Part shown: positions 1,565 through 46,590 of the stretch, one piece after another
How positions within the stretch are numbered: the stretch's first letter is position 1
How the letters are laid out: each line of letters opens with the position of its first letter
Origin: Nitrospirota bacterium
GTDB taxonomy: Bacteria; Nitrospirota; UBA9217
Length of the DNA stretch: 64,000 nt
Direction of reading: 5' to 3'
Assembly: GCA_963840455.1 (NCBI GenBank)
Contig: CAWIYV010000007.1
Coordinates: forward strand, 394,456-458,455
Made by a program: the position numbers and the translations under genes
Notes under the pieces: model-generated
The model's database searches: none
Seen by the model: the letters and a program-made list of their open reading frames with translations, nothing else
Told to the model about the DNA's origin: nothing

Positions 1565-1585
1565 TGTAAAGAAACAAGGAGCTCT

Positions 1586-1654
1586 GACAGGATTGACAGG
1601 ATATTAAGAATAACTTTAAATTCATCAATTTATCCGATTTTATCCTGTAGTCCT
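1586..1654. repeat. Imperfect inverted repeat TGACAGGATTGACAGGAT ... ATCCTGTAGTCCTGTCA with a ~35-bp AT-rich spacer, between ccoI and ccoS
   Basis: Read directly from sequence. 17-18 bp arms with a central 2-3 nt mismatch. Confidence 0.6.
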
Positions 1655-1672
1655 GTCAAGAAAGGTTGTCGT

Positions 1673-1816
1673 ATGCTCTGGACGATCGTCGCGCTCATCA
1701 TTCTCATGTTCTTTGTCGGCCTCGCCGGTTGGTTCATCTTCCTCTGGGCGGTCAAGTCCGGCCAGTTCGACGATATAGAACGGCCCAAGCACCGTATGAT
1801 GGATGATGATAGCTAA
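1673..1816 (+). CDS. ccoS: cbb3-type cytochrome oxidase maturation protein CcoS/FixS (47 aa; absent from the ORF track because it is under 60 aa)
   Basis: ATG at 1673, TAA at 1814. Translation MLWTIVALIILMFFVGLAGWFIFLWAVKSGQFDDIERPKHRMMDDDS: single TM helix plus the WAVKSGQFDD...acidic tail signature of the FixS/CcoS family. Position directly after the P1B-ATPase fits the ccoGHIS order. Confidence 0.8.
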   Translation: MLWTIVALIILMFFVGLAGWFIFLWAVKSGQFDDIERPKHRMMDDDS

Positions 1817-1863
1817 ATGCAAATAACTTGGCGTATTCGTCAGTGTTTAGAATCGAATAATCA

Positions 1864-2553
1864 GTGTCTATGTATATCGAAATCTTCCTCATCGGCCTAT
1901 TCGGCAGCATGCACTGCATCGGCATGTGCGGCGGATTTGTTGCGATGTATTCTCTCAAGAGCCCGTCCGCCCGACCGTCATTGCCTTACCATCTTCTGTA
2001 CAATCTTGGAAGGATAACCACCTATTCCATCATCGGCGGAATACTGGGGTACATCGGTTCCTTTGCCGCATACATCGGCAGACACCGGGGTGTTCCCGGT
2101 GCTGTGCTGCTCGTCGCAGGCGTGTTCATGATCTTGATGGGTCTGAACATAGCCGGGATGCTCGGCAAGAGGGAACTTTTCGATGATACCGGGATAACCG
2201 AACGAACATTCTTCCGTGAGGCACTCCATACGATACTTGCCTTGGAATCGGCCTGGGGTACGCTCCTACTCGGACTGTTGCTGGGATTCCTGCCCTGCGG
2301 GCTTCTCTATCCGGTCTTGATGCAAGCGGCGGCAAGCAGCGGTTTCATCAGCGGCATGGTCATCATGCTTGTCTTCGGCGTCGGTACCGTGCCTGCGATG
2401 CTCTCGTTCGGCTTCCTGATATCCAGGATCCAGCCCCATAGGAAACTCTTTCTGTACCGCATCGCTGCCGTCCTTATCATCATCCTCGGCCTGCAATCCC
2501 TGCTGCGCGGTATGGCCTTCAACGGCTGGATAGCCCACGGAAAATACTGGTAA
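1864..2553 (+). CDS. DsbD_2/TauE-SafE-like polytopic membrane protein with an HCxGMCGG motif, of the type commonly found next to ccoS
   Basis: MHCIGMCGGFV motif in TM1, about 6 predicted TM segments, second Cys pair LPCGLLYP. Family assignment from memory of DsbD_2 (PF13386)-type proteins. Confidence 0.5.
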   Translation: MSMYIEIFLIGLFGSMHCIGMCGGFVAMYSLKSPSARPSLPYHLLYNLGRITTYSIIGGILGYIGSFAAYIGRHRGVPGAVLLVAGVFMILMGLNIAGMLGKRELFDDTGITERTFFREALHTILALESAWGTLLLGLLLGFLPCGLLYPVLMQAAASSGFISGMVIMLVFGVGTVPAMLSFGFLISRIQPHRKLFLYRIAAVLIIILGLQSLLRGMAFNGWIAHGKYW

Positions 2554-14606: not shown

Positions 14607-14664
14607 GACCTCTTATACAATACCTCCCCGCTAATTGCAAGAGCATCTATGTTATACTCGAACT

Positions 14665-15987
14665 ATGCATAAGAGCGCCCGATCAGCCCTGCTCGTTCTT
14701 GCGGTCCTGCTGCCGTCTATCAGTGCATTTGACGATGGCCATGCAGCGGAAAAGCTCTCCCTGACGCAATGCCTCGAAACGGCGCTCAAGAACCAGCCGG
14801 CGATCAGGGCGGCCCAGGAGAACGTTCGTGCCGGTCAAGGCCGGGAGACCCAGGCGGCATCGCCCTATTTCCCGCAGCTCACGGCAAGTACCGGTTATTC
14901 CGAGAGCCATGCCCCCCTGGGAGGTGCGTTCGGAGACAGTACAACGAAGAGCTATACCACGAGCCTGTCGTTGAGCCAGACGCTCTATGACTTCGGGAAA
15001 ACCGGAAATGCCTATGACGCAGCGAAATTGGGTACGCTGTCGCTGGAGCGGGATGCGGAACGGATCAGCCAGGAGGTCGTGCTGAATGTCAAACAGTCCT
15101 ATTACGCGCTGCTGGCGGCCAAGAAGCTCGTCGAGGTAGCCCAGAAAACGATCGAGCAGACCGAAAGCCATCTGAAACAGGCCGAGGCGTTCTTTCGCGC
15201 GGGATCAAAACCGAGATACGACGTGACGCGGGCCGAGGTGGAAGTGAACAACGCGAATCTCGGCCTGATCAACGCAAAGAACGGTGTGCGCATAAGGACG
15301 ATCGCCCTGAACAACGCCATGGGGATCGATCCGGGGAGGGCCACGGAGATCGTGGAGGAGCTTCCCTCCGTCCCGCTTCTTCCGTCGCTGGACAAGGCGC
15401 AGGCGGACGCCCTTCAGAACCGTCCGGACATGAAACGGATGGAGGCTGACATCGAGGCGGCCCGGGCCCGGCTGACGGCGGAGCGGTCGAACCACCTTCC
15501 GACGCTCTCGGCGAACGCCGCCTACAACTGGGCGAACGGCACTACCGAGATGGGACCGTTCATGGGGACGATGTTCAAGGGAGACGTCCAGAACAGCTGG
15601 AACGCCGGGATCATGCTGACCCTGCCCCTGTTCCAGGGAGGCCTGACGGCGGGCCGGGTCGCCGAGGCGCGGGCGAATCTGCTTGCGCTTGAAGCCCAGC
15701 GGGACGCGATGAAGCAGTCGATCCTCCTGGAGGTGAACCAGGCCTTTGCCGATCTCGAGAGCGCGGCCGCGCGGGTGGAGGTCATGGAGAAGACCCTGCA
15801 AAAAGCGCGGGAAAATCTTGATATCGCCCAGGGCAGATATAAAGCAGGGGTCGGTCCCTATATTGAAGTGACAGACGCCCAGCTTTCCTCGGTCAATTCA
15901 GAAACAGACCATATCAAGGCGCTGTATGATTATCACCTTGCGATCGCGCAGCTCCAGAAAGCAATGGGCATCAAAAGCTATGAATAA
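14665..15987 (+). CDS. TolC-family outer membrane efflux protein
   Basis: Start taken at MHKSARSALLVLAVLLPSISA (signal peptide). Two OEP repeats. Confidence 0.8.
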   Translation: MHKSARSALLVLAVLLPSISAFDDGHAAEKLSLTQCLETALKNQPAIRAAQENVRAGQGRETQAASPYFPQLTASTGYSESHAPLGGAFGDSTTKSYTTSLSLSQTLYDFGKTGNAYDAAKLGTLSLERDAERISQEVVLNVKQSYYALLAAKKLVEVAQKTIEQTESHLKQAEAFFRAGSKPRYDVTRAEVEVNNANLGLINAKNGVRIRTIALNNAMGIDPGRATEIVEELPSVPLLPSLDKAQADALQNRPDMKRMEADIEAARARLTAERSNHLPTLSANAAYNWANGTTEMGPFMGTMFKGDVQNSWNAGIMLTLPLFQGGLTAGRVAEARANLLALEAQRDAMKQSILLEVNQAFADLESAAARVEVMEKTLQKARENLDIAQGRYKAGVGPYIEVTDAQLSSVNSETDHIKALYDYHLAIAQLQKAMGIKSYE

Positions 15988-16033
15988 CACGAGGCCGTAG
16001 AAGGTCGTTGACGGAGAGAGGGGAGGAAAAGCA

Positions 16034-16492
16034 ATGCCGCGAGTAGAATCAGTGTTCAGGGTCAAACTCCCTGTCAGGGCAGTGTGGTCCTTTATGTCGG
16101 ACCGCAACGAAGTGGGCTGTCTGTTCCCGGGATGCAAGGGTGTCAAGATCTTAGATGATCTGGACGCGATATGGAAGGTGCGCGTGACCTTCGGGCCCTT
16201 TGCCCGGCTCGTGGAGCTGAAGACCCACACGACGGCGTTCAAGGAGTTTGAGCAGCTTTCCTGGATCGGCAGCGGCGGAGACATCCACATGTCAGGTGAC
16301 GTCATGCTGAAAAAGGTCTCGGACGACGAGACCGAGGTGGTCTATCATCTGGAAGGGCATGTGACCGGGCCGTTCGCCATGCTGCAGGACATTGTGGTGG
16401 CGGAGAAGCTGCGGGAGGTGAAGAAGAAGTTCATCAAGAACATCAAGGACGAGCTCGAGTGGCAGCTGGATGAGGGCGTGGAAAAGAAATGA
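16034..16492 (+). CDS. SRPBCC (CoxG/polyketide-cyclase-like) small ligand-binding protein
   Basis: 152 aa, VWSFMSD...KFIKN pattern typical of CoxG-like SRPBCC. Confidence 0.5.
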   Translation: MPRVESVFRVKLPVRAVWSFMSDRNEVGCLFPGCKGVKILDDLDAIWKVRVTFGPFARLVELKTHTTAFKEFEQLSWIGSGGDIHMSGDVMLKKVSDDETEVVYHLEGHVTGPFAMLQDIVVAEKLREVKKKFIKNIKDELEWQLDEGVEKK

Positions 16493-17592
16493 CGCTGCTC
16501 AGGAACAAGAAGGTGCTGATGGCTGCCGCGGTGGTGATCGTCATTGTGCTCGCCGTCGTAATGACCGGCAAGAAACCGGTGCCGGTCAAGGTCATTGAGA
16601 TCAAGCGGGGAGAATTGCGCGTCATCGTGAATGCGACGACCACGTCGACGGTAAAGTCGGAATACGAGGTCACGCTTTCCGCGCAGCGCACGGGAAGGGT
16701 CGTCACGCTGCCGGTGCGGGAAGGGGACCGGGTCAAGGCCGGAGACCTGATCGCACGGCTTGATCTGACCGAAGAATCCGTCCAGTCCGAGAGCGTTCTG
16801 GCCCAGAGCAGGGCAACATACGGGGAAACGGAGAAGAACCTCAAGCGCTCGGAAGATCTTTTTGCGAACGGGATGATCGCCCAGCAGGACCTCGACAGCG
16901 CACGCAGAGCGTTCGAGGTGGCACGGTCCCAGTATGAAGCCTCCCGGGACGATGTCAAGGTCAAGAAGGACTATTCCGTCATCAGGACGCCCTATGGCGG
17001 TGTGGTGTCGAAGAAATACACGGAGGTAGGCGAGCTGCTCCTGCCCGGGAAGCAGATCGTGACCGTCGTGGACCCTGACCGTATCTATGTGCTGGCGACC
17101 ATCGATGAGGTGGATGTGGGACGGCTTCGTCTGGGGCAGCCGGTGGCCATCAGCATTGACGCGTTCCCGGGCGAGAAGTTCAACGGCACCATCAGGCGGA
17201 TATCGCCCATCGTAAGCGGCGGAAAGCTGGAGACCCGGACCGCGGACGTGTGGATCTATTTCACGGCGAAGGACGCCAGGATCAAGCCGGGGATGTCCGC
17301 CGACGTCGAGATCCTCATCACGACGCTCACGGGGGTCCTGTCCGCTCCATCACAGGCCATCGTGGAGCGCGACGGCAAGAAGCAGGTCTATGTCGCTGAA
17401 GGAACGAACCTTGCCCCGGGTGCCACTACCCGTGTGCGTCTGCAGCCTGTGGAGATCGGCGAAAGCAACTGGGTGAGTACGGAGATCAGGAACGGCCTGA
17501 AGGCCGGGGAGTTCGTTGTTACCACGCCCGAAGTGGAAGGACTGAAGGATGGCGTCAGAATCGTCGTCGAGAAAGAGAAAAATTCCCGTTAG
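16489..17592 (+). CDS. Efflux periplasmic adaptor (HlyD/MacA-type membrane fusion protein)
   Basis: N-terminal TM anchor, biotinyl-lipoyl-like hairpin, coiled coil, beta-barrel domains. ATGA overlap with the upstream gene. Confidence 0.8.
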   Translation: MTLLRNKKVLMAAAVVIVIVLAVVMTGKKPVPVKVIEIKRGELRVIVNATTTSTVKSEYEVTLSAQRTGRVVTLPVREGDRVKAGDLIARLDLTEESVQSESVLAQSRATYGETEKNLKRSEDLFANGMIAQQDLDSARRAFEVARSQYEASRDDVKVKKDYSVIRTPYGGVVSKKYTEVGELLLPGKQIVTVVDPDRIYVLATIDEVDVGRLRLGQPVAISIDAFPGEKFNGTIRRISPIVSGGKLETRTADVWIYFTAKDARIKPGMSADVEILITTLTGVLSAPSQAIVERDGKKQVYVAEGTNLAPGATTRVRLQPVEIGESNWVSTEIRNGLKAGEFVVTTPEVEGLKDGVRIVVEKEKNSR

Positions 17593-17604
17593 CATACCCC
17601 TGCC

Positions 17605-18278
<674 letters not shown>

Positions 18279-18282
<4 letters not shown>

Positions 18283-19487
18283 ACTTCATCGAGATATTCA
18301 GGGTCGCGCTGGAGGCCATCCTTTCGAACAAGGTGCGGTCCGGCTTAACCATGCTTGGCGTGATCATCGGGGTGCTCGCGGTGATCTTGCTGGTCTCGAT
18401 CGGCGAAGGGGCACAGGTCTACATCACCAAGGAACTCACGGGCATGGGAACGAACCTCCTCATGATCACACCGGGGAAAACGAGCACGAGCGGCGGCTTC
18501 CATCCTCCCTCAGCAGGAACAGTGCGCAAACTGACCTATGATGATTCGCAGGCGCTCAAGCGCCGCGCCTGGCTCCTGAGCGATGCAGTACCGCTTGTGT
18601 TCGGCACCGGACGGATAAAATACCAGAACATGGGCCGCGACACCATGATCATCGGAACAACGCCGGAGTTCCAGAGCATCCGGCACCTCTTCGTCGACAC
18701 CGGCAGCTATGTGACCCAGGGGGATGTGGATTCCAAGGCGAAGATCGTGGTGCTCGGCACGAAGGTGAAGGAGGAGCTGTTCGGCCAGGAGAATGCGCTC
18801 GGCAAGGCCGTGACACTTTCCGACGCCCGCTACCGCGTCGTCGGGGTGATGCAAAAGCGGGGGACGAGCCTTGGCATGGACCTCGATGATATCGTGTTCA
18901 TACCCGTCACGAGCGGACAGGAGCTGTTCGACACCGATGGGCTGTTCGAGATCATCGCCTCGACACCCCGGGCAGAGGACGTGGACCGGGCCATCAGCCA
19001 GATCAAGGAGGTCCTGATTAAACGGCACGCGCACAAGGAGGATTTCACCATCCAGACCCAGGGTGCCATGCTCTCGACCATGAATACCATTTTGAACATC
19101 CTGACCGCGGTGCTCGGGGGCATTGCCGGAATCTCGCTGCTCGTGGGCGGGATCGGGATCATGAACATCATGCTGGTCTCTGTCCGCGAACGCACGCGGG
19201 AGATCGGCATCAGGAAGGCCATCGGTGCCCGGAACAGCGATATCATGGCTCAGTTCATGATCGAGGCGATCACGCTGTCCGGCGTCGGCGGGGTCATTGG
19301 CATCGTGCTCGGTGTGGGCATCGCGCTCCTGATCCCGATGTTCGTCACGGTGCTCCCGACGAGCATATCGCTCTGGTCCATTGTGATGGCCTTCACCTTC
19401 TCCATGGCGGTCGGTGTGTTCTTTGGCGTGTACCCGGCCCGCAAGGCATCGCTTCAGGACCCTATCTCCGCACTACGCTACGAATAG
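18279..19487 (+). CDS. ABC transporter permease, FtsX/MacB-like
   Basis: Start ATG overlaps the upstream TGA. N-terminal TM, large periplasmic domain, three C-terminal TM (FtsX fold). The longer track ORF from 18222 is an artefact. Confidence 0.85.
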
Positions 19488-19561
19488 GTGGAAAATTGTA
19501 CGCATATTTGGTATAGTTACTGGCAAGGAAACGATATAATTCGGACGGCAGGAGGGTATTC

Positions 19562-20068
19562 TTGATGGAAAAGCGAAGTGGCGTCTTTCTGGTGAAAACT
19601 GACTGGTGGTATATCGAACGACTTGTGTGGCTCATTGCCGGGACTGATGTGGTCTTGAGCTCGATCCTGACCGCGGTCCATAGCCCCAACTGGGCGTTCT
19701 CAATCCTCTTCGTCGGTGTCTGCTCCATAACCGTGGCGCTCACCGGTTTCTGCATTGTCGGAAATGCTCTCTACTTCCTCGGCGTGAGGCCGCTGGTGCC
19801 TGACAAAAGGACCTATGACAAGGGAAAATGGAACGGTCTGTATTTTATGGAGAACAATGAGTGGTTCCTGGAGCGGTACATCTACGTGTTCGTCGGCGTG
19901 AACCTGTCCATCAGTTCGATGCTGGCGCGCTTTGTCAGCCCCTATTGGCTCTATTTCACCGGCTTTGTCGGCACCGCCACCATCCTCTTCGCCTTCACCG
20001 GCTTCTGCATCATGGCGAACTTCCTGTACCGCCTGGGTCTCGAGCCCCGGATGTGCCGGAACATCTGA
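19562..20068 (+). CDS. Tandem DUF2892 (YgaP-like) membrane protein
   Basis: Two repeats of the W...GxxxLxxxxTGFCxxxNxLYxLG pattern. Confidence 0.55.
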   Translation: MMEKRSGVFLVKTDWWYIERLVWLIAGTDVVLSSILTAVHSPNWAFSILFVGVCSITVALTGFCIVGNALYFLGVRPLVPDKRTYDKGKWNGLYFMENNEWFLERYIYVFVGVNLSISSMLARFVSPYWLYFTGFVGTATILFAFTGFCIMANFLYRLGLEPRMCRNI

Positions 20069-20154
20069 ATGGTCGTGCAAGACTGTCGGAGGCATAGCAC
20101 CTGCTTTGTCCGGCCATGCGCTCGTTCGATGGGTCAGTAGTCGGATTCCGCTCG

Positions 20155-20613
20155 CTAGAACTTACCCGCGTGCCGCTCGAGCGTCGATCGCGCAATACGA
20201 TAATCATCTCCTTCCTGCGTTCCCTCGATCCTGATCGGGAAACAGCCCCCGATGCCCTTCTCCAGCTTGTACACCGAATAGGTCGTATCACAGGCCCTGC
20301 ATACGACGTAACCATCTTTAGACTCGTATCCAAGCTTCCGGGGATAGCAGGTGAGACAGGCGTCCAGGAAGGAGAGGACCACGTCCTTCATCCGGATCAC
20401 GAAGAAGTTGACATCTTTGCCTTTTGTTCGAAAGGAGTAGAACTGCGGCGTCTCAAGCGGGAGCGATGCCGTATGGATCACGACATTTTCGCCTTCGATC
20501 GGAGGCGCGGCATAGCGCGGCTGGCGGGAACAGGCCGCAAGTGAAGCGAAGGCTCCGACCAGGCACGAGGTCGCCAATAGATATTTGATGAAGGCAAGGC
20601 GAAAATGTCTCAT
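20155..20613 (-). CDS. Cys4 (CxxC-x15-CxxC) zinc-ribbon/rubredoxin-like lipoprotein, DUF2318/FtrD-like
   Basis: Start at MRHFRLAF. Lipobox LAACS. CLTC...CRAC metal-binding knuckles. Confidence 0.45.
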   Translation of the reverse strand: MRHFRLAFIKYLLATSCLVGAFASLAACSRQPRYAAPPIEGENVVIHTASLPLETPQFYSFRTKGKDVNFFVIRMKDVVLSFLDACLTCYPRKLGYESKDGYVVCRACDTTYSVYKLEKGIGGCFPIRIEGTQEGDDYRIARSTLERHAGKF

Positions 20614-20724
20614 TGTGAACTCTTTTCCCAGGCGCACGGCAGGTACGGATACAGGGCCGCGAGGACATCTGCAGCGGCATACCGCCCCGGGCAGATGCAG
20701 AGCATCCGCCCGGGGTTGAACGCC

Positions 20725-21246
20725 TTAATGCTTGTGCTCCATGGACTGCGTTTTTTTCATCTTTCTCTTTTCCCGGATCATCTTTGTGTCCTCATACATG
20801 TCCGTGTAGGCTGACTTGATGACGTCGTCGAACGATGACAACGTGCCGCCGTTCGTTTTGATGAAGGCCTCGGCATCGTCCTTTTTCTCGAACGCCCATT
20901 TTCCACGCTTGGTCATCACGCCGGCCTTTGTGCCGCCGACAACCCAGAAGGCTTTCTCCGCATCGATGAGGGCTTTGGTCCCGAAATCCCCGACCTTGAT
21001 CGCTGTCGGCGTTTTGTCGATGTTCATCGCCAGTTCGACTGCAGCGCAGTGGAGGCTGCAAACGCCCGTTGACGTACCATCGTCATACTCGATCAGCATC
21101 CGGGTAAAATCGAACTTCTGCCGGTCCATGCCGCAGTACTTGCAACTCGGCGACTGCTTGACGTCGTCCTGCGCGACCGCCGTCATCGCCAACATCCCGA
21201 ACACCACTGCCAATGCCAACGCCGCTGCTACGTTCTTCCTGTTCAT
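20725..21246 (-). CDS. NosL-family copper-binding protein (paralog 1)
   Basis: Start at MNRKNVAAAL (signal peptide). CKYCGMD motif and the overall NosL pattern (FD..G...CS..CA). Confidence 0.65.
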   Translation of the reverse strand: MNRKNVAAALALAVVFGMLAMTAVAQDDVKQSPSCKYCGMDRQKFDFTRMLIEYDDGTSTGVCSLHCAAVELAMNIDKTPTAIKVGDFGTKALIDAEKAFWVVGGTKAGVMTKRGKWAFEKKDDAEAFIKTNGGTLSSFDDVIKSAYTDMYEDTKMIREKRKMKKTQSMEHKH

Positions 21247-21331
21247 ATGCCCCTCCTTGAATGAGAAATGGTGCTGCAAGCCGGATCTCCCGTATCAGAG
21301 AAGATTAGTATCCTGATTGATACCTGTCCAA

Positions 21332-21805
21332 CTACCGGACCTCCCGGGCGAGATCCTCCCGCGCCGCTGCAAGCGCCTCGTTCCAGGTGATGATCGCCCC
21401 GTCGTAGCGCTCGATGAACGCCTCTGCCGAGGCCCGGGTCGCAAAAGCCCACTTGGGCCGGTCCGTCATGACACCCCGCTTCGCGCCTCCCATGACCCAT
21501 GCCGCTTTCTCCGCATCGATCAATGTCCGGTCATTACGGTCGGCCGCGAGGATGGCCTTCACCGTCCGTCCCGCATTCGAGTCGAGCTCAACCACAGCGC
21601 AGCGCAGGCTGCAGACGCCGACGGAGATCCCGTCCTCATATTGTACCAGCATTCTGCTGAATCCGTAGGCCTTCCGGTCCATGCCGCAGTGGACGCAGGA
21701 ACGGTATTCCGATATATCATCGCCAGCGGGGACAGCCGCTCCCGCCAAGATGACCAGCAGTGATGCACAAAAGAGGACGACGCAAACTCTCAGGTTCATG
21801 ATCAT
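21332..21805 (-). CDS. NosL-family copper-binding protein (paralog 2)
   Basis: Start at MIMNLRV (signal peptide). CVHCGMD motif. About 45% identical to paralog 1 by eye. Confidence 0.65.
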   Translation of the reverse strand: MIMNLRVCVVLFCASLLVILAGAAVPAGDDISEYRSCVHCGMDRKAYGFSRMLVQYEDGISVGVCSLRCAVVELDSNAGRTVKAILAADRNDRTLIDAEKAAWVMGGAKRGVMTDRPKWAFATRASAEAFIERYDGAIITWNEALAAAREDLAREVR

Positions 21806-21833
21806 GTACTCCTCAAAGGGGCGATGGCTCCGA

Positions 21834-22391
21834 TCACGGCAGACCGGCCAGGACATTATGTAACCGCACCCCGTCCTTATAATCTTCGTTCATGCGAACG
21901 ATTCCCGCACTATCCACGACGACGGTGATCCCCATTGTGCCATGATAGAGGTTCTCGACCGTATCTTGCGTATCCGCAAGAATCGTCAATGCTGTGCCAC
22001 TGAAACCGTAATTGGTCGCAGATTGCTGTACCTGTGTAATCGTGTCGCTAACATAATCCACCGCATAGAACCGCACATTCGGAAATGCGGGTATCTGGAC
22101 ATTCACTATATTGTCCATGTGGTCCCAACATATAGGGCACCACATGGTGAAGTAAAATACCACTCCCTGCAAGCCGGTGGTCGTGAGGACAGAGGAAAGA
22201 GTGACATCATTTCCGAACATATCTGGAATGGTGAAATCCGGAGCTAGTTGGCCGGGTAAGGGTCCAATCGTGCCCGGCGTTACGGGGGGCTGCTTGTCGC
22301 TCCCGGATGGAAAGAGATCGTCCGTAATGCCGCCGCATCCGGCGAGCATGACAAGGATCATGATGAGGATGCTGTTCTTAACGGAACCCAT
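21834..22391 (-). CDS. Thioredoxin-fold (redoxin/TlpA-like) lipoprotein with a CPIC active site
   Basis: Lipobox LAGCGG. WCPICW CxxC motif. Confidence 0.65.
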   Translation of the reverse strand: MGSVKNSILIMILVMLAGCGGITDDLFPSGSDKQPPVTPGTIGPLPGQLAPDFTIPDMFGNDVTLSSVLTTTGLQGVVFYFTMWCPICWDHMDNIVNVQIPAFPNVRFYAVDYVSDTITQVQQSATNYGFSGTALTILADTQDTVENLYHGTMGITVVVDSAGIVRMNEDYKDGVRLHNVLAGLP

Positions 22392-23364
22392 AGCTCACTC
22401 CCAGGGTATAGATATCGGTGGTCGGGAAGTTATCGCCCCAGCCGTCCTGCCGGACCGCGTGGATCCAGGAGACCCTCGTGCTCCAATCATGGTCGGTGCT
22501 TGAATAGGCGAGTGCAGCGCCGATCGACTCCTTCCGAAATCCGCTCGATGGGTCCTTGGCGTCGTTGTAGGTCCCGTCCGCCTCCCGCAGATAGGAAAAG
22601 GACCCCGTGCCTGTCAGTTTGTCCCCGCCGGTGCCGATGTAGTACGTGTAGCCGAGGGAAAGGGATGCGGATGTGCGGTCTCCCAAAGTCTTATGGTAAG
22701 GATCCACATATCTGCCGTATTCACGATTGACCGATCTCTCAATGTACGTTCCATAGCTCAGCGACAGGGATGCGTTCCAGGGATTCACTGTTTTTGCGAC
22801 AACGATATTGCCATCGAGACGGTAGAAGCCTCGTCCGGTAATATCGTAGCTGCTCGTCACATCATCATAGGGGGAAATGCCTGTCGGAACCAGCAAGCCC
22901 ATGCCGATCGTGACCGACGGGATCATATCCTTCATGCTTCGGATCTTCCAGGCAGACTTGTCGTCGACAGCTTCATACCAGACATTTAGCGTCGTGTCGC
23001 CGATCCCATTAGACCGAGAGGTACTTCTTGGATAACCATTGTAATTCCAAACATAGGGAACGGTAATGCTTGTCTGCCAGCGTGAAGCAAGGCGCTGGGC
23101 TAATCCGAGGTTTAGGCGATATTGCCAAAGATGATAATTTGGTTGGCTAAAATATTGTCCCTTGTTATTCCAGAGCCCATTGTATTTTTCCACATCTACG
23201 GACAGATCGATCATGCCCCGATAGTAACTGGGCAGCAGCAAGGCTGTTCCTCCACCTCCGCCGCAACAGGAGCCTGCCCAGGTGGAAAGGGGAGAAAGGA
23301 GCGCGGCCCCCGTGAAGAGGGCCGCGATCAGGATATAAAATGCCCGTGCACTTGGCATCAGCAT
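22378..23364 (-). CDS. Small outer-membrane beta-barrel protein with an N-terminal GSCCGGGGG motif
   Basis: Signal peptide, alternating-hydrophobic amphipathic strands rich in Y/G/W, ends SYGFR. A CC pair follows the signal peptide directly. Confidence 0.5.
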   Translation of the reverse strand: MLMPSARAFYILIAALFTGAALLSPLSTWAGSCCGGGGGTALLLPSYYRGMIDLSVDVEKYNGLWNNKGQYFSQPNYHLWQYRLNLGLAQRLASRWQTSITVPYVWNYNGYPRSTSRSNGIGDTTLNVWYEAVDDKSAWKIRSMKDMIPSVTIGMGLLVPTGISPYDDVTSSYDITGRGFYRLDGNIVVAKTVNPWNASLSLSYGTYIERSVNREYGRYVDPYHKTLGDRTSASLSLGYTYYIGTGGDKLTGTGSFSYLREADGTYNDAKDPSSGFRKESIGAALAYSSTDHDWSTRVSWIHAVRQDGWGDNFPTTDIYTLGVSYGFR

Positions 23365-23366
23365 GC

Positions 23367-24977
23367 CTACTGGGGAGTGACGACGAAGGACGTATATGCG
23401 TTGGCACCGGAGGCTGCTGCGCCATCCGTGGTCTTGTCCTGTCCGTTCACTTGCAACTTGATGTAGATCGTGGCCGTCTGGCCAGATACAAGACCGCCGA
23501 GCCCGTTCAGGGACCAGTGGCCGTTGCCTGCGTCCGTTCCGATGACCGGCGATGTAAATGACGTATCCGTTGCGGCCGATACGGCCATGGACGTCACCGT
23601 TCCCGTCGGACTGCTCAGCACTGAGCCGACCGACGCGGGATTGAAGTTCATCATCATGTTCTCGGCGTGGGAGATCATAAAGTTCAAGGTTTCGCTGGAC
23701 GCATTGACCGACCCGTCCCGGAACAGGATGTATCGTGTATACTGCGTGCCGCTCGGCCCGCTGACGATATCGGCCGGTCCGTATAACCGCTGAACGATCG
23801 TATCGGTGCCCATCGCCATGCCGACAGAGGGATAGAATGTCGCTGATTCGGCTCCCATCCCCATGCCGATCATGACCTTCATTTCCCAGATCCCCATGTT
23901 CAGACCCGAAGCCATAAGATAATAGGCCGTGCAGTCATAGGTGCCGGGAGTGCCGGATTCGGTGGCAGCATCGACCGGTGTGCCGTGGTTCTTCGTGGAC
24001 ATATGCATCATCGGCATGAGCTTGACCGTCAGGCCCGTTGCGGGCAAGCCGTCGCTCCGGTTCGTGATCCTGATCTTGAACATTGTTTTGCCTATCGTGG
24101 GCCCCATCATTCCCAGAGGAACATATTCGACCCGGTAGGTCGGTGTCAGCGAGACCTTTGAAAATGATAGATTGCCGACCTGGTCAACGGTCAGACCGGT
24201 CAAATTGCGGGTGGTGTTCGATAGACAGGTCACCAAAGCACATTCGAATTTATTCATAATATCCTCGGGAACGCTTCCCGTGCCGAGCGATACTGGCATT
24301 GATACGTTCTTGCCATCGAGAATCCCGTCAGCAAGATCCTGAGCAAGTGCTTCAAGCAGGTCGAACTGGTCGATCGGGCTGAGGCCAAGGTCCTTGGTCA
24401 ATTGGCTGAACGCCATGGCCCGAAGGCCCGCGAGGCGCTGCGCCGTGCTGGATGCAGCGGAATAAGGCGCATTGCAGGGCGCGATGGATGCGTCGGGGGC
24501 GAAGCCGAAGGCCGAAGCGAACAGAGCAGATGCATCAGCATTCGTCCTGCCGTGGATGCGCATGAGATCGGCGATGATCGTTGATGAGGGATCGAGGTTC
24601 ACGGAGGCATTTGAACCCATGCTTCCCGCCGACATATATGCCGCGAGGGAACTGGCCGTCGTCGTTGCGCCCGTCGCTTCGTCAACGAACGTTCCGCCGC
24701 TTGAACGGAAGAGAATCGTTCCCGTGAGGAAGCTGGACGGAATGCCAATGCTGTACCTGCCGTCCACGGCCGTGGTGACCGGTCCGGCTATGGTGGTGGT
24801 GCCTGTCGAGTTCAGGACAACAACAGTTGCCCCGGATACCGGGGCCGCGTAGACTGAACCGCTGACAGTCGTGTCTGTTGACGGCGCCGCATTGTTTGAA
24901 GAACCGCCGCACCCCGCAAGCAGGGCCAGAAACGCAGCAAGAACCAAAGCTAATCCTTTGTTCCGTTGTGTCTGCAT
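23367..24977 (-). CDS. Large secreted lipoprotein with clustered Met motifs (MPMMHM, MxGMGMG, VGMAMG); candidate Cu(I)-binding protein
   Basis: Lipobox LAGCGG, Ser/Thr/Gly-rich linker, then a Met-dense C-terminal half. Confidence 0.5.
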   Translation of the reverse strand: MQTQRNKGLALVLAAFLALLAGCGGSSNNAAPSTDTTVSGSVYAAPVSGATVVVLNSTGTTTIAGPVTTAVDGRYSIGIPSSFLTGTILFRSSGGTFVDEATGATTTASSLAAYMSAGSMGSNASVNLDPSSTIIADLMRIHGRTNADASALFASAFGFAPDASIAPCNAPYSAASSTAQRLAGLRAMAFSQLTKDLGLSPIDQFDLLEALAQDLADGILDGKNVSMPVSLGTGSVPEDIMNKFECALVTCLSNTTRNLTGLTVDQVGNLSFSKVSLTPTYRVEYVPLGMMGPTIGKTMFKIRITNRSDGLPATGLTVKLMPMMHMSTKNHGTPVDAATESGTPGTYDCTAYYLMASGLNMGIWEMKVMIGMGMGAESATFYPSVGMAMGTDTIVQRLYGPADIVSGPSGTQYTRYILFRDGSVNASSETLNFMISHAENMMMNFNPASVGSVLSSPTGTVTSMAVSAATDTSFTSPVIGTDAGNGHWSLNGLGGLVSGQTATIYIKLQVNGQDKTTDGAAASGANAYTSFVVTPQ

Positions 24978-25006
24978 GATTGTGACCTCTCCATGTTCAT
25001 GAATAG

Positions 25007-25504
25007 TTATAGTCGCGATAAGAGATCAATGATCTCTTGTTCATAAACCGGTACGAATACCCCGCTGAATCCCTGGTGCACGTATCGGATGATGCTGTCA
25101 CGGCCGATAAGATAGAGCGCCGGCAGACCGGAAAAGCGGTAGGCTTCCGCCGTATCGCCCCGCGTGTCCAGGACCACGGGAAAGCCGACAGGCCGCTTTT
25201 TCAGAAATGCCGCTAACCGTTCGGCGGTAGCGTCAACTGCTATTCCGATGACGATGAATCCCTTATCCCGATATATTCGATAGAGCCGATCCAGCTCGGG
25301 AAACTCCTCTCTACACGAAAGACACCAGGGGGCCCAGAAAGCGAGCAGGATAACGTTTCCGTTCAGACTTTCGAGTGAGACCGAACTTCCGTTCACATCA
25401 GCAAGCTGAAAAGCAGGCGCTCTATCCCCGGCCTGGACCGCGTTCACAGTGGCAGGTGTCAGGACAAGCAAAAGGGCTATGAAGATGTTAATGTTCACGT
25501 TCAC
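25007..25504 (-). CDS. TlpA-like periplasmic thiol:disulfide oxidoreductase
   Basis: Signal peptide. WAPWCLSC CxxC motif in a thioredoxin fold. Confidence 0.75.
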   Translation of the reverse strand: MNVNINIFIALLLVLTPATVNAVQAGDRAPAFQLADVNGSSVSLESLNGNVILLAFWAPWCLSCREEFPELDRLYRIYRDKGFIVIGIAVDATAERLAAFLKKRPVGFPVVLDTRGDTAEAYRFSGLPALYLIGRDSIIRYVHQGFSGVFVPVYEQEIIDLLSRL

Positions 25505-25694
25505 TCTGAAAGAAATGGCTCCGCCTCAGAAATATCTTGAGCAGCAGGGATGATGCCGGATACTTCCGAAGCGGAGCCGGGCGAAAGGGGGAGAAACGCC
25601 CATAGGTGTGAGCCGGCTTGCAGGACGGCGCACAAACGCAACCGGATCGCGGTGCGCATTTCGACACGCTTACGGAAATACTGGAAACGAGGGG

Positions 25695-25982
25695 TTACGA
25701 CCTGGGGGGATGTTCGCTGCTACTGGTGAGGATCAGTTCAGTGAAGACCGGATGGACCGGTTCGGTGAAAGATACGGAAAGGGTGGGAGGTGCAGTGCAG
25801 GGTGCCAGACCGACGCAGGGCATCTCGCCGTTCGAAGAAAGGGCCGGTGCGGCAGAGTGGCAGACGTCGAGAGTGCCCAGGAACGAGCGTCCGTCATTCA
25901 CGGCCATGAACGACAACGATGTCACCGGAGCGAGGACCGTGAACGCGAGGACGATCAGCAGGATGAATGTTACCGACTTCAT
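25695..25982 (-). CDS. Small secreted Cys/His-containing protein (95 aa), hypothetical
   Basis: Strong signal peptide MKSVTFILLIVLAFTVLAPVTSLS. DVCHS...MPCVGLAPC. No clear RBS, so low confidence. Confidence 0.35.
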   Translation of the reverse strand: MKSVTFILLIVLAFTVLAPVTSLSFMAVNDGRSFLGTLDVCHSAAPALSSNGEMPCVGLAPCTAPPTLSVSFTEPVHPVFTELILTSSSEHPPRS

Positions 25983-26362
25983 AGTTGAAGTATAGAAATA
26001 AAATATCGTCCTGTCAACGTAAAGTTTTAATTATTGTTGGTTTGATGTGTGCCATATCGCGTTCATGGTAAGCTCTTTTGCGGGTTTTTATAACTGGAAT
26101 GCCGCAAAATAGTGCACGAAGTTCAGCAGGAGGGTGTGAAACATCTGTCATGTGTATTTGCTCAATAGCCTGACGAGGTTCTATGATTCCGGATCTTGCG
26201 CTTCGACGCTGAGTGCATCCGGGTAGGCAGCAATGTTCGAAGCGAACTTAACGGGGAATCAACACTGGATTTTTGAACGCTAACGGTAATGAGCACGATG
26301 AAACTCACGGTAATTACTGAATTCTTTATTGACACCTCCCGGCAAATACGGTAATTTTAACC

Positions 26363-26941
26363 ATGACGGGCATCATTCTTGCCGGTGGAGAAAGCCGGCG
26401 CATGGGCACGGACAAGGCCCTGCTCGATATCAACGGCAGGCCCATGATCGAACATGTTCTTGCAGTATTTGCAGGTCTGTTCAAGAAGACCATCATTGTC
26501 ACGAACACGCCGGACCGATACCGGATGTACGGCGTCGAGCTGACCAGTGATGTCCTTGACATCCGTGGTCCACTGACCGGCATCTATTCGGGGCTGCTCA
26601 GATCGCATGATGAGTATAATTTCGTCGCAGCCTGCGACATGCCCTTTCTGAACCCCCGGCTCATAGCGTACATGGGAGAGCTGGCTGCGGGACATGATGC
26701 CGTGGTCCCGATGTTCGGCGGCGGTTTTCTCGAGCCGCTCCACGCGATCTACCGCAAGGGTATCTTCCCGGTCATCGAGATGCAGGTCCGGAAGCAGGAC
26801 CGCAGGATCCGGGGTATGTTCGATCATATTCAGGTCAGGTATGTAACAGAAGAAGAGATCGTCCGGTTCGACCCGCTGAAAAAGTCATTCAGGAATTTAA
26901 ATACACCGAAGGAGTACAAGGAGGCAGTATGTTTGGATTAG
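26363..26941 (+). CDS. mobA: Molybdenum cofactor guanylyltransferase MobA
   Basis: [20 protein letters not shown]-terminal nucleotidyl-transferase motif. Confidence 0.85.
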
Positions 26942-27111
26942 GAATGCCGGAGCTGTTGGTCATTCTGGTCATTGTCATTATCATCTTTGGGGCCAGCCGT
27001 CTCCCGCAGCTGGGCGAAGGGCTCGGCAAGGCCATTAAAGGCTTTAAGAAGGGGATCGCGGACAGCAACGAGGCGAACAAGGACTCGTCCAAGCCTGAAA
27101 ATAAGTCATAA
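26929..27111 (+). CDS. tatA: Twin-arginine translocase subunit TatA/E
   Basis: [26 protein letters not shown], amphipathic helix, 60 aa. Confidence 0.85.
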
Positions 27112-46000: not shown

Positions 46001-46051
46001 ACACGCGCCTGACGCGCTGCCTTTGGCGCGTCGCTGTGGACCCGCCTTGTT
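46001..46051. repeat. GC-rich hairpin-containing ~50-bp repeat, copy A (GACGCGC-loop-GCGCGTC ... GCTGTGGACCCGCCTTGTT)
   Basis: Direct repeat of copy B (about 85% identity over the ~30-bp core). Confidence 0.65.
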
Positions 46052-46573: not shown

Positions 46574-46590
46574 CATCCACCTTGGGACTA

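Follow-up and report, generated by a model that had tools for sequence, protein, structure and literature searches.

Organisation of the locus

The window analysed here, a stretch of 64,000 nucleotides, contains eight co-directional genes, named p1 to p8 in the order of transcription, which form a putative copper-handling operon (Table 1). ORF coordinates, signal peptides and lipoboxes bear out the preliminary description of the locus as eight minus-strand genes that all code for exported proteins. Export signals were read from the sequences of all eight products: p3, p5 and p8 carry lipoboxes (LLAGC, MLAGC and SLAAC, respectively), p2, p4, p6 and p7 carry signals of the signal-peptidase-I type, and the N-terminus of p1 is hydrophobic. 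The ORFs of p6 and p7, first listed as 21332-21856 and 20725-21279, are shortened by starts that are preceded by Shine-Dalgarno sequences, GAGGAG for the start at 21799, which matches a 155-aa gene call, and AAGGAGG for the start at 21246. The start of p8 (first listed as 20155-20637; product of ~152 aa) is probably also shortened, to 20613. With these revised starts the only true overlap is that of p4 and p5 (14 nt), so that the second of the two overlapping pairs described earlier disappears, whereas the maximal gap of 190 nt, between p1 and p2, stands. This widest intergenic gap contains a conserved hairpin. The spacing between p3 and p4 is 2 nt.

Table 1. Features of the operon and its upstream region (window coordinates)
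Feature	Coordinates	Strand	Description	Evidence
Operon	20155-25982	minus	putative copper-handling operon, p1-p8	ORF coordinates
A/T-rich element	26012..26033	minus	abuts the -35 hexamer	most aligned upstream regions
Promoter	25989..26017	minus	sigma-70 type, TTGACA-17-TATACT	11/12 consensus matches (scan)
p1	25695..25982	minus	95-aa exported/membrane-anchored small protein	25 orthologues aligned
Hairpin	25517..25578	minus	long hairpin between p1 and p2	fold z = -4.96
p2	25007..25504	minus	periplasmic TlpA/ResA-like thiol:disulfide oxidoreductase, WCLSC	Pfam AhpC-TSA 88 bits, Redoxin 79.5 bits
p3	23367..24977	minus	536-aa lipoprotein	lipobox; four parts
p4	22378..23364	minus	outer-membrane beta-barrel of FapF/COG4313 type	signal-peptidase-I type signal; barrel fold similarity
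p5	21834..22391	minus	lipoprotein redoxin with FxMWCPxC (WCPIC here)	Pfam AhpC-TSA 37.9 bits
p6	21332..21799	minus	secreted NosL-family protein (CVHCGMD, CSLRC, GVMT)	Pfam NosL 37.6 bits
p7	20725..21246	minus	second secreted NosL-family protein (CKYCGMD, CSLHC, GVMT)	Pfam NosL 54.4 bits
p8	20155..20613 (probable start)	minus	lipoprotein with a lone DUF2318/FtrD-like domain	PF10080 64 bits vs cutoff 26.3

The families guessed earlier from the sequence (NosL twice, two CxxC thioredoxin-fold proteins and DUF2318) were all recovered by profile search, and no Pfam family scored above threshold for p1, p3 or p4. The ccoI-ccoS module previously placed about 18 kb away was likewise identified, as a P1B copper ATPase fragment at 68-1564 (TIGR01511) and ccoS at 1673-1816 (TIGR00847, 45.9 bits versus a cutoff of 28.35); it lies on the strand opposite to the operon, with unrelated genes between. 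As had been stated, neither nosZ, nosDFY nor an oxidase structural gene was found among the window ORFs from about 600 aa upward or among the recurrent neighbours in 80 related loci, and no gene for a target cuproenzyme is genetically linked to the cluster.

The p1 gene, its promoter and the p1-p2 hairpin

The ATG of p1 lies 7 nt past the -10 hexamer, and the p1 mRNA is thus leaderless. The same arrangement, TTGACA and TATAGT or TATACT separated by 17 or 18 nt with an ATG 6-7 nt downstream, is found in most of 24 Nitrospirota-type upstream regions. The adjacent A/T-rich element, with the consensus TAAAATTAGAACTTTAC, forms an imperfect palindrome. When up to 3 mismatches are allowed, the window contains a single occurrence (0 expected), which may act as an UP element or as an operator.

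The p1 product has no Pfam or NCBIfam match and is restricted to Nitrospirota-type loci. Its 25 orthologues share the motifs LDVCH...PALSSNGxMPC and a C-terminal FQDERPPK, and substitutions at the three codon positions (0.43, 0.36 and 0.57) follow a pattern that fits a coding gene. Between p1 and p2, ending 12 nt 5' of the p2 start, lies the hairpin GGCUCCGCUUCGG...CUGAGGCGGAGCC, followed by AUUUCUUUC. Its stem was found in at least 13 loci, RNAalifold predicted 13 pairs, 3 of them with compensatory changes, and no Rfam family matched. The element looks like an intrinsic terminator or attenuator. The gene of the small Cys/His protein p1 would be expressed from a strong leaderless promoter and set off from the remaining operon by this terminator-like hairpin, and the protein probably serves in the periplasm, in abundance, to bind copper or to regulate.

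Conservation of the cluster

Of the 168 species-level genomes that encode the barrel, 80 loci were fetched for gene-neighbourhood comparison. The carriers of the cluster comprise more than 160 species, mostly anaerobic or sediment bacteria. The arrangement recurs across the 80 loci and is therefore not due to chance. The near-universal core is p3-p4-p5, the order of which is held in Nitrospirota, Geobacteraceae/Desulfuromonadales, Gammaproteobacteria and Zetaproteobacteria. The proposal that the unit is built around tandem NosL paralogs must be abandoned, as NosL is a lineage-specific addition in Nitrospirota and Desulfuromonadales. It is missing from the gamma- and zetaproteobacterial loci, where a small CxxCH cytochrome c is encoded at its position, and the loci that have it mostly contain a single copy, right after p5. 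The p6-type gene, which follows p5 in about 47 loci, is this position-conserved copy. Elsewhere, NosL of the p7 type is encoded together with FtsX-type ABC transporters or with the DUF2318 protein, and from gene order p7 and p8 are classed as a putative accessory module.

Other neighbours vary. CopC and CopD genes are inserted between those of NosL and the DUF2318 protein in three loci (L011, L015 and L021) and SCO1/SenC adjoins the cluster in four (L020, L033, L035 and L044), such CopCD/Sco neighbours being present in just 7 of 81 loci. The order NosL, small ORF, FtsX permease, ATPase, membrane protein and DUF2318 was found in L010, L016 and L020, and Cys-rich secreted proteins are encoded beside the cluster in Geobacteraceae. 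In many Nitrospirota loci a convergent operon for a MacB-type ABC transporter, HlyD, CoxG and TolC is syntenic with the cluster. The flanks of the Nitrospirota loci are themselves syntenic (MobA, TatA and RecJ), they have an ordinary GC content, and a copper-sensing regulator was not found beside the operon. No published description of the cluster was found in the literature, in line with the earlier remark that the arrangement is not a described system. The operon is real and undescribed.

The core proteins p3, p4 and p5 and the redoxin p2

Four parts make up the p3 lipoprotein: a beta domain resembling CarboxypepD_reg, a helical domain, an Ig-like domain rich in Met and His (~residues 275-400) and a C-terminal Ig-like domain. 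The dense Met motifs noted in the preliminary description are present (LMPMMHM, MIGMGMG, GMAMG and NMMMN), and residues M324, M326, H331, C349, M355, M361, M387 and M389 of the Met/His-rich domain are conserved. The predicted structure is confident. Its top structural match is the copper protein CrdA, to which sequence similarity is undetectable, and in the structural-similarity test the domain was recognised as a CopC/CrdA-like Met-rich copper-binding Ig fold. The p3 of the window did not match the YtkA/CtaK domain PF13115 at E <= 1, and 27 of 66 relatives match it weakly, all below the gathering score of 25.9 bits (best E 2.5e-5; 16.1 bits over residues 296-355 in relative P0235).

In p4 the signal peptide is followed by GSCCGGGGG, the mature N-terminus given earlier; this disordered tail has an invariant (A/G)SCCGG motif and then a Gly-rich linker. 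The barrel-fold similarity test groups p4 with the FapF and COG4313 channels, its closest folds, which serve polypeptide secretion and hydrophobic molecules, respectively, and neither of which is a metal channel. PF13557 (Phenol_MetA_deg) does not match p4 of the window, and 5 of the 120 relatives listed carry a precomputed match. The loop of p4 that is conserved best, PTGISPYD...DITGRGF, is rich in acidic and hydroxyl groups, not in S or N ligands. An assignment of p4 as a PcoB/CopB copper channel was rejected, since neither a CopB family HMM match nor a specific fold match was obtained.

Both p2 and p5 combine a thioredoxin fold, a WCxxC motif and an export signal, as do TlpA/ResA/DsbE-type oxidoreductases. 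The p2 scores for ResA (102 bits, equivalog cutoff 170), TlpA (55.7, cutoff 230) and DsbE (48.9, cutoff 123) are all below the NCBIfam cutoffs, and p2 was not accepted as an equivalog of any of them; p5 scores only 20 bits for ResA. A TlpA-like redoxin is encoded upstream or downstream of the core in 43 cases, and the WCxxC of p2 is kept in 42 of 43 relatives. In 80 loci the p5 gene comes directly after that of the barrel; M83, W84, C85 and C88 are conserved in all 80 relatives, of which 79 also keep the lipobox Cys.

The NosL-family proteins and the DUF2318 protein

Both p6 and p7 score above the gathering score of Pfam NosL (PF05573), which is 24. In NosL of S. denitrificans the Cu(I) ligands are Cys62 and Met64, within CxxCxM, and Met145, and NosL homologues exist outside nos clusters (PMC8457098). 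In an alignment of p7 with 7og7, CKYCGMD falls on CHLCGML and GVMT on the Met145 region, and the CVHCGMD and GVMT of p6 occupy the same columns. Both proteins thus retain CxxCGM and the C-terminal Met, and at the Zn site they keep another pair of Cys residues. Neither signal peptide, in p6 (MNLRVCVVLFCASLLVILAGAAVPAG...) or p7 (MNRKNVAAALALAVVFGMLAMTAVA/QDD), contains a lipobox Cys, and since the signals are of the signal-peptidase-I type, both proteins would be secreted and not lipid-anchored.

In p8 no membrane domain and no hydrophobic segment was found beyond the N-terminal signal. Five of its Cys residues (C94, C97, C113, C116 and C132 in ORF numbering) are conserved in 20-21 of 21 orthologues, and the gene is confined to Nitrospirota-type loci, which places it outside the core.

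A proposed role in envelope copper handling

Starting from the observed gene order and its conservation, the family memberships, the conserved ligand residues and the fold similarities, we propose, with a probability of roughly 0.55, that the operon encodes an envelope system handling Cu(I), with p3-p4-p5 as its core and a NosL relay in some lineages. Most likely, it captures copper ions and passes them through the cell envelope. The copper and thiol-redox theme of the preliminary description agrees with the NosL ligands, the match of p3 to CrdA, the CopC-CopD and Sco neighbours and the weak YtkA/CtaK matches, which together point to copper as the substrate. The conserved SCCGG of p4, FxMWCPxC of p5, Met, His and Cys residues of p3 and CH...MPC of p1 fit soft-metal and thiol chemistry. 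Several observations weigh on the other side: p3 of the window has no YtkA match and those of its relatives stay below threshold, CopCD/Sco neighbours are few, the closest folds of p4 are not metal channels and its best-conserved loop is not rich in S or N ligands, NosL is missing from the gamma- and zetaproteobacterial loci, no cuproenzyme gene is linked, and the resistance role of CrdA and the neighbouring efflux operon of many Nitrospirota would also suit detoxification.

In the model that we infer, the outer-membrane barrel p4, of a 12-stranded type, would be translationally coupled to the lipoproteins p3 and p5. The Met/His-rich p3, through its CopC/CrdA/YtkA-like Ig domain, would bind Cu(I) by thioether and imidazole ligands, and the CxxC redoxin p5 would reduce the flexible periplasmic Cys-Cys tail of p4 and the Cys ligands of partner proteins. 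The soluble TlpA-like redoxin p2 may play an equivalent reducing role toward soluble components. In Nitrospirota and Desulfuromonadales the secreted NosL-type chaperone p6 would ferry copper across the periplasm, plausibly to Sco, to CopC-CopD or to cuproenzymes of the membrane, for example heme-copper oxidases, and p7 and p8 would form the accessory module that is elsewhere paired with an FtsX-type ABC transporter. Copper flow toward acquisition and delivery is favoured over detoxification; the syntenic flanks, the ordinary GC content and the lack of an adjacent copper-sensing regulator favour supply over an acquired resistance island.

A system for copper or silver detoxification appears rather unlikely by comparison. 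In this reading Cu(I) in the periplasm would be bound up by p1, p3 and NosL, thiols damaged by copper would be repaired or reduced by the redoxins, and the barrel, the neighbouring MacB-HlyD-TolC pump or both would provide the exit for the metal. CrdA, the best structural match of p3, is indeed a resistance determinant that partners an efflux pump, resistance systems typically include small periplasmic proteins that bind metal and are abundantly expressed (PcoE, SilE), and the convergent efflux operon is syntenic in many Nitrospirota loci. That operon is nevertheless found in neither the Geobacteraceae nor the gammaproteobacterial loci, the cluster sits in core-genome surroundings that are syntenic and of ordinary GC, no copper-sensing two-component system or MerR/CsoR regulator adjoins the operon, multicopper oxidase, CusCBA and CopA genes are not in the cluster, and its variable neighbours CopCD and Sco are import and assembly rather than efflux factors. 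An accessory system for iron uptake akin to FetMP-FetABCDEF (P19) is improbable. It would have a P19-like p3 domain binding iron next to copper, with redox support from DUF2318, two thioredoxins and an FtsX-type ABC transporter. These parts, with a YHS domain that we take to be TRASH-like, match Campylobacter jejuni fetABCDEF, the FtsX-containing order in the three loci mentioned above recalls fetA-fetBCD, and both iron reducers and iron oxidisers are among the carriers. Against it, neither an Ftr1/FetM permease nor a bona fide P19 occurs in the window cluster or among the recurrent neighbours, the conserved Met, His and Cys residues of p3 are typical of Cu(I) sites, NosL, CopCD and Sco alike indicate copper, and DUF2318, confined to Nitrospirota-type loci, stands outside the core.

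Slightly less probable still is secretion or surface display, in which p1 or p3 would pass as an unfolded chain through the FapF-like barrel to the surface, the redoxins keeping cargo cysteines reduced in transit and metal being bound extracellularly. Such a role would suit the translational coupling of p3 and p4 and the small, Pro-rich p1, apparently overexpressed relative to the remaining operon, but the barrel is conserved where p1 is absent, outside Nitrospirota, and genes for amyloid-like or repeat cargo are absent; secretion would in any case be compatible with a copper role. We would be much surprised if the system handled not copper but a different thiophilic species, for example Hg(II), Ag(I), Cd(II) or sulfane sulfur/polysulfide. 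Hg is indeed bound, and persulfides are carried, by vicinal Cys pairs and CxxC proteins, MerB and NosL have a common fold, and many of the carriers inhabit sulfidic sediments or are sulfur oxidisers; however, mer, rhodanese, Sox and Dsr genes are not among the recurrent neighbours of the cluster, sites rich in Met prefer Cu(I)/Ag(I), and the variable families NosL, CopCD and Sco are all copper-specific.

A more far-reaching form of the proposed copper role is put forward with considerable doubt, namely that p3-p4-p5 is an unrecognised outer-membrane machine for copper acquisition in bacteria of sulfidic or low-oxygen habitats. The FapF-like barrel would bear a redox-maintained Cys-Cys 'fishing line', and its partner, the Met-rich lipoprotein, would pull in scarce Cu(I) and transfer it to lineage-specific carriers, NosL in anaerobes and the small cytochrome c where Cu(II) needs prior reduction. 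The leaderless p1, with its ...ERPPK end, and the sequence-conserved terminator hairpin would form a new cis-regulatory device, in which the hairpin may sense translation or export of p1. If this is true, FetABCDEF, the accessory genes that go with the P19 iron system, would have the same ancestry and serve as a module for copper loading.

Comparison with known systems

The known NosL of the nosRZDFYL clusters (7og7, 2hpu), the Cu(I) chaperone of nitrous-oxide reductase, belongs to the same Pfam family as p6 and p7. It is an outer-membrane lipoprotein with a lipobox Cys, whereas p6 and p7 are predicted to be secreted, and its Asp ligand at the Zn site is replaced by Cys in p6 and p7 (CSLRC and CSLHC), giving a full four-Cys TRASH-like motif. 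It is encoded with nosZ and nosDFY, while p6 and p7 are encoded with a barrel, a Met-rich lipoprotein and redoxins; NosZ and NosD families are absent from the large window ORFs (about 600 aa and up), the flanks and the recurrent neighbours of the 80 loci.

Besides the CopC/PcoC family, the copper-resistance protein CrdA of Helicobacter pylori, which works with CrdB-CzcBA, is close to p3. Like p3, CrdA carries its Met-rich Cu(I) site in a domain of the Greek-key/Ig-like type, but it is a single domain of 108 residues without Cys or His and part of an RND efflux system, whereas p3 is multi-domain. CtaK (YtkA), with Sco, and YcnJ, a CopC-CopD-YtkA fusion, act in copper import and CuA assembly in Bacillus subtilis. 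Common to both systems are a lipoprotein with a YtkA-like Ig domain beside thioredoxin-fold proteins and, in some relatives of the operon, CopC, CopD and Sco encoded alongside. In contrast, p3 is five times larger, with additional domains, a far denser Met cluster and a YtkA similarity under threshold; the system is diderm, with a dedicated outer-membrane barrel; and the redoxins have the CxxC of the TlpA type rather than the CxxxC...H of Sco.

In C. jejuni, FetA consists of 8 TM, DUF2318 and YHS (PMC10783030). The FetMP-FetABCDEF system shares with the operon a DUF2318 domain, two envelope thioredoxin-fold proteins, a TRASH/YHS-type metal domain (NosL in the operon) and an FtsX/MacB-type ABC transporter, which is encoded in or beside the cluster here. 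DUF2318 is, however, a free lipoprotein (p8) confined to one lineage here and part of an 8-TM protein in FetA, the Ftr1/FetM permease and P19 of FetMP have no counterpart in the operon, and the core of the operon is an outer-membrane barrel with a Met-rich lipoprotein. The same concept as in the operon is found in the TlpA-ScoI-PcuC system of Bradyrhizobium, in which a TlpA-type reductase keeps copper-site cysteines reduced and chaperones deliver Cu(I) to oxidases, and the pcuABCDE copper-starvation operon joins outer-membrane, periplasmic and CopCD-like parts. That system uses PCuAC and not NosL or YtkA-like proteins, and its protein families differ from those of the operon. The channels FapF, COG4313 (Pput2725) and PcoB/CopB have neither the redoxin and lipoprotein partners of p4 nor its SCCGG-polyGly N-terminal tail.

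Organization of the operon

Eight consecutive ORFs are present on the minus strand between positions 20155 and 25982, and their products are named p1 to p8 in transcription order (see the table). The family assignments made in the preliminary description, namely two NosL proteins, two redoxins and a DUF2318 protein, were borne out, as all of them scored over the Pfam cutoffs. For the redoxin p2, the nearest NCBIfam models are ResA and TlpA, with scores under all equivalog cutoffs. The export signals were read from the N-termini of p1 to p8. The starts of p6, p7 and, probably, p8 were revised to codons preceded by a Shine-Dalgarno sequence, using also an independent gene call on an identical contig. 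With these starts, p4 and p5 form the sole overlapping pair (14 nt), and the gap between p3 and p4 is 2 nt; of the two overlapping pairs initially proposed, the second thus disappears. The motif FxMWCPxC of the redoxin lipoprotein p5 was found in 80 of 80 relatives, and five cysteines are kept in p8. The latter is a free lipoprotein, whereas in Campylobacter jejuni FetA the DUF2318 part is a domain inside an 8-TM protein (PMC10783030).

Coordinates of the operon genes, their expression signals and neighbouring operons
Feature	Position	Strand	Description
Promoter TTGACA-17-TATACT	26017-25989	-	near-consensus, 11/12 matches; p1 ATG 7 nt past the -10 hexamer
p1, small Cys/His protein	25695-25982	-	no Pfam family over threshold; hydrophobic N-terminus
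Hairpin between p1 and p2	25578-25517	-	long, with U-rich tail; fold z = -4.96
p2, TlpA/ResA-like redoxin	25007-25504	-	AhpC-TSA 88 bits, Redoxin 79.5 bits (Pfam); WCLSC; signal-peptidase-I type signal
p3, Met-rich lipoprotein	23367-24977	-	no Pfam family over threshold; lipobox
p4, FapF-like outer-membrane barrel	22378-23364	-	no Pfam family over threshold; signal-peptidase-I type signal
p5, redoxin lipoprotein	21834-22391	-	AhpC-TSA 37.9 bits (Pfam); WCPIC; lipobox
p6, NosL family	21332-21856 as ORF, start revised to 21799	-	NosL 37.6 bits (Pfam, cutoff 24); signal-peptidase-I type signal
p7, NosL family	20725-21279 as ORF, start revised to 21246	-	NosL 54.4 bits (Pfam, cutoff 24); signal-peptidase-I type signal
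p8, DUF2318/FtrD-like lipoprotein	20155-20637 as ORF, start revised to 20613	-	PF10080 FtrD-like (former DUF2318) 64 bits; lipobox
Convergent operon	14635-20068	+	TolC, CoxG/SRPBCC protein, HlyD adaptor, MacB-type ATPase, MacB-type permease
Copper ATPase region	68-2553	+	P1B copper ATPase fragment (cut by window edge), ccoS, DsbD_2-family membrane protein

Conservation and core of the cluster

A pattern scan for the barrel p4, with one genome per species, yielded at least 168 genomes, and about 80 loci (L001 and following) were fetched and compared with the window by mapping onto them the proteins of the window and ORF families defined de novo, giving 82 sources (81 fetched loci and the window). 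The barrel has 821 detectable relatives with 60-85% identity. The carriers, for the most part metagenome-assembled genomes, belong to the Nitrospirota, to the Geobacteraceae, Desulfuromonadaceae and Pelobacteraceae, with Geobacter sp. OR-1 (L025) and Geomonas silvestris Red330 (L041) as isolates, and to the Gammaproteobacteria (Chromatiales, Sedimenticola, Thiohalomonadales), together with one Zetaproteobacterium.

The order p3-p4-p5 is found in about 80 of the 82 sources (p3-family ORF in 80, p5 straight after the barrel in 80). In 43 cases a TlpA-like redoxin is encoded, either upstream or downstream, and p1 and p8 occur in Nitrospirota-type loci only. In Nitrospirota and Desulfuromonadales (about 50 loci), the gene after p5 encodes a true NosL protein, as judged from its CxxCGM motif; in the Gamma- and Zetaproteobacterial loci, a small cytochrome c with CxxCH takes this position. 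Single-linkage BLAST clustering had placed NosL in 78 of 82 loci; this count was rejected, as the Gamma- and Zetaproteobacterial members proved on inspection to be CxxCH cytochromes. The p6-like NosL lies directly after p5 in about 47 cases, and the p7-like proteins are extra copies, often located either beside a group made up of a small ORF, the permease and ATPase of an FtsX-type transporter and a membrane protein containing Cys, or beside the DUF2318 gene. The window operon consists of a core module, p1 to p6, and an accessory module, p7 and p8. The tandem NosL genes, around which the operon was initially thought to be built, are not its organising principle; that idea is contradicted by the near-constant p3-p4-p5 trio and by the replacement of NosL.

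The NosL-replacing cytochrome c is about 85 aa long, or about 160 aa in a di-heme form, and lies directly 3' of the p5 homologue in Gammaproteobacteria (L047, L052, L056-L059, L061, L063, L064, L067, L071-L073, L076-L079) and likewise in one Nitrospirota locus, L068. Four loci (L059, L061, L073, L076) carry, just 5' of p3, a multi-CxxCH protein of 810-890 aa with NHL-like repeats by eye and a second c-type cytochrome-like protein. In Geobacteraceae/Desulfuromonadales loci (L017, L022, L023, L025-L029, L032, L034, L035, L037-L046, L050, L051), the place upstream of p3 held by p1 and p2 in Nitrospirota is occupied by f12, a family of Cys-rich secreted proteins of about 160-250 aa with motifs CCCW, GCCS and SCCAS. 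A second Cys-rich family, f67 (122 aa, repeated CxCGDxCxC), is found in five such loci; neither matches a Pfam family. Finally, eight loci (L010, L012, L016, L020, L022, L038, L044, L075) contain a recurrent module composed of a p7-type NosL, a short ORF (about 100 aa), the permease and ATPase of an FtsX-type ABC transporter, and a polytopic membrane protein of 330 aa with CC and CxxC motifs, followed by a DUF2318 lipoprotein in the Nitrospirota loci L010, L016 and L020. This module looks like a split C. jejuni FetA-FetBCD.

Genomic neighbours

Three copper-specific families are variable neighbours of the cluster: NosL, CopC/CopD and SCO1/SenC. CopC (72.5 bits), CopD (64.4 bits) and another barrel are inserted between the NosL and DUF2318 genes in L011, L015 and L021, and SCO1/SenC (80.9 bits) adjoins the cluster in L020, L033, L035 and L044, so that CopCD and Sco associations concern 7 of the 81 loci. 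NosZ, oxidase subunits and multicopper oxidases are absent from the recurrent neighbours of the cluster loci, in agreement with the early remark that no nosZ or oxidase structural gene is present. A target cuproenzyme was also sought among these neighbours; those checked in Desulfuromonadales are housekeeping genes by sequence inspection (tryptophan, riboflavin and cobalamin synthesis, NusB-like, chemoreceptors, kinases).

In Nitrospirota, MobA, TatA and RecJ are syntenic on one flank of the cluster, and the other flank holds, in many loci and in the window, a convergent operon of a MacB-type ABC transporter, HlyD, CoxG and TolC. The GC content of the cluster is ordinary. Between this operon and the cluster lies a gene for a 168-aa protein with two YgaP-like (DUF2892) TM repeats, each with a conserved Cys; unlike the MacB operon, it recurs in few loci only. 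The MobA-like nucleotidyltransferase gene (26363-27111, plus strand) is divergent from p1. Other MobA-like genes are found a few kb or less from the cluster in L041 (13670-14335, Geomonas) and L065 (1185-1820, Gammaproteobacterial), probably by coincidence.

The ccoI-ccoS genes first reported from the same window are indeed present, but on the other strand and with an RND pump, the MacB pump and other genes in between. The DsbD_2-family protein encoded next to them could be a source of reducing equivalents for p2, p5 and similar thioredoxin-like proteins of the periplasm. Elsewhere in the window, the stretch 46001-50000 has a GC content of 0.45-0.49, compared to about 0.58 for the remainder, and adjoins a tRNA-Gly gene (50052-50127); it may be an island or insertion.

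p1 and expression signals

The leaderless geometry of the p1 promoter recurs in most of the 24 upstream regions compared, where the ATG lies 6-7 nt past a near-consensus -10 hexamer. The -35 hexamer adjoins TAAAnTTnnAAnTTTA, an imperfect palindrome rich in A/T (25989-26033 on the minus strand, promoter included), which recurs in most of the same regions; its motif occurs only once in the window. This element may be of the UP type or may bind a regulator.

The conserved motifs of p1 (LDVCH...GxMPC...FQDERPPK) and its substitution rates by codon position (0.43, 0.36 and 0.57) identify it as a real gene. Its N-terminus carries a segment for export or anchoring, and its end, ...FQDERPPK(S)-stop with a di-proline, is almost invariant; two copies are present in L014 and L033. 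SecM, MifM and VemP are translation-arrest peptides with a monitoring function, and it is pure speculation that the architecture of p1 might be reminiscent of them.

The stem sequence of the hairpin between p1 and p2 was found 3' of p1 in at least 13 loci (L001, L002, L008, L013-L016, L018, L024, L028, L033, L060, L062), where the proteins are only about 60-65% identical, and compensatory changes are seen at three of the 13 consensus pairs. As an Rfam scan of 19400-26500 at E <= 1 gave no match, the hairpin is not a known riboswitch. The simplest reading is that of a partial terminator, through which p1 would exceed the downstream products in abundance. A regulatory role is possible, and the hairpin could be an attenuator, an RNase III site or a new cis-regulatory RNA. 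A conserved CCGAAG box (CCGUAAG at 25669-25677 in the window) lies 15-20 nt past the p1 stop and is the complement of CUUCGG, a part of the hairpin's left arm. An anti-terminator pairing of the two boxes was considered and rejected: both are invariant and thus provide no covariation evidence, and the RNAalifold structure lacks this pairing.

Features of p3, p4 and the NosL proteins

The structure of p3, predicted with confidence from a 66-sequence alignment (pLDDT 91.3, pTM 0.86), comprises an N-terminal beta domain with weak CarboxypepD_reg matches, a helical domain and two Ig-like domains, and the conserved residues concentrate in the first of these (M324, M326, H331, C349, M355, M361, M387, M389). 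PF13115 (YtkA-like) is the commonest family match across the 66 family members (27 members, best E 2.5e-5, all under the gathering score), one match spanning residues 296-355 within the Met-rich domain, which covers roughly residues 270-400. Since searches of PDB sequences with the full protein, the Met-rich segment and the 66-sequence profile gave only noise, the likeness of p3 to CrdA, P19 and YtkA rests on fold and on these sub-threshold matches. CrdA is a CopC-like resistance protein with a Met-rich Cu(I) site. YtkA/CtaK is a Bacillus subtilis lipoprotein and a partner of Sco in CuA assembly, and is also found as the C-terminal domain of the CopC-CopD importer YcnJ.

In p4, an AxA-type cleavage site is followed by (A/G)SCCGG and a Gly-rich linker, a motif found in about 80 of 81 homologues; residues 14-39 are disordered. 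The conserved small residues at -3/-1 before (G/A)S favour cleavage by signal peptidase I over a lipobox reading, also considered, in which the first Cys of AGSCC would be lipidated. The nearest folds of the barrel are not metal channels, and an exact-sequence cluster look-up returned no informative names. Both p6 and p7 align with S. denitrificans NosL at CxxCGM and the C-terminal Met, i.e. its Cu ligands C62, M64 and M145, and carry CSL(H/R)C at the position of its Zn ligands, C88 and D92 (PMC8457098).

Proposed function

That the cluster concerns copper is our main reading, with a probability of about 0.75; the specific supply and relay model set out here is given somewhat better than even odds. 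The cluster would form an envelope Cu(I) handling route, with the barrel p4 and two lipoprotein partners as its outer-membrane station. Cu(I) would be bound by the Met/His cluster of p3 and carried onward by the secreted NosL protein p6, while p5 and p2 would keep reduced the Cys-Cys tail of the barrel and the Cys sites of NosL, p1 and p8. TlpA acts on Sco and CuA sites, and the proposed thiol reduction would parallel this activity. An electron for the reduction of Cu(II) to Cu(I) could come from the small cytochrome c in the case of the Gamma- and Zetaproteobacteria.

Acquisition and delivery are favoured over detoxification because the cluster has a core-genome syntenic location, no copper sensor is adjacent, and the variable neighbours are import and assembly factors. 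Detoxification nevertheless keeps a substantial share of the probability, because CrdA confers resistance and the cluster has an efflux pump as its neighbour. A rival reading, an iron-related role like that of C. jejuni FetABCDEF, draws support from a striking resemblance of the parts lists (DUF2318, YHS/TRASH, FtsX-type ABC, two thioredoxins, P19-like fold). The same likeness suggests an alternative, in which the Fet accessory genes themselves are a copper-handling module.

Significance and comparison with known systems

How copper crosses the diderm outer membrane and reaches cuproenzymes of the periplasm or membrane is poorly understood, above all in anoxic, sulfidic environments, which offer little of it. 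A conserved unit of five to eight genes in at least 168 species-level genomes, among them Nitrospirota, Geobacteraceae, sulfur-oxidising Gammaproteobacteria and Zetaproteobacteria, offers a concrete, testable candidate. It gives NosL a defined context beyond N2O reduction, extends YtkA/CrdA-type domains to a new diderm architecture, and suggests what the accessory genes of pathogens' Fet/P19 systems (DUF2318, thioredoxin, ABC), so far unexplained, might do. In sediments, both N2O reduction and the activity of oxidases are limited by the supply of copper, so that the system could be relevant to the cycling of metals and greenhouse gases.

To our knowledge, none of the known copper routes (OprC/NosA TonB-dependent receptors, porins, CopCD, PCuAC/Sco) resembles the cluster, and no description of its architecture was found in the literature on NosL (DUF2318, Geobacter, non-denitrifiers) or on COG4313 and copper. 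Taken singly, the domain families are all known or similar to known ones. What appears to be new is the architecture: a FapF-like barrel with a SCCGG tail, a YtkA/CrdA-like Met-rich lipoprotein, a dedicated lipoprotein redoxin and an interchangeable NosL or cytochrome c. We rate the cluster as belonging with the periplasmic copper chaperone and relay systems.
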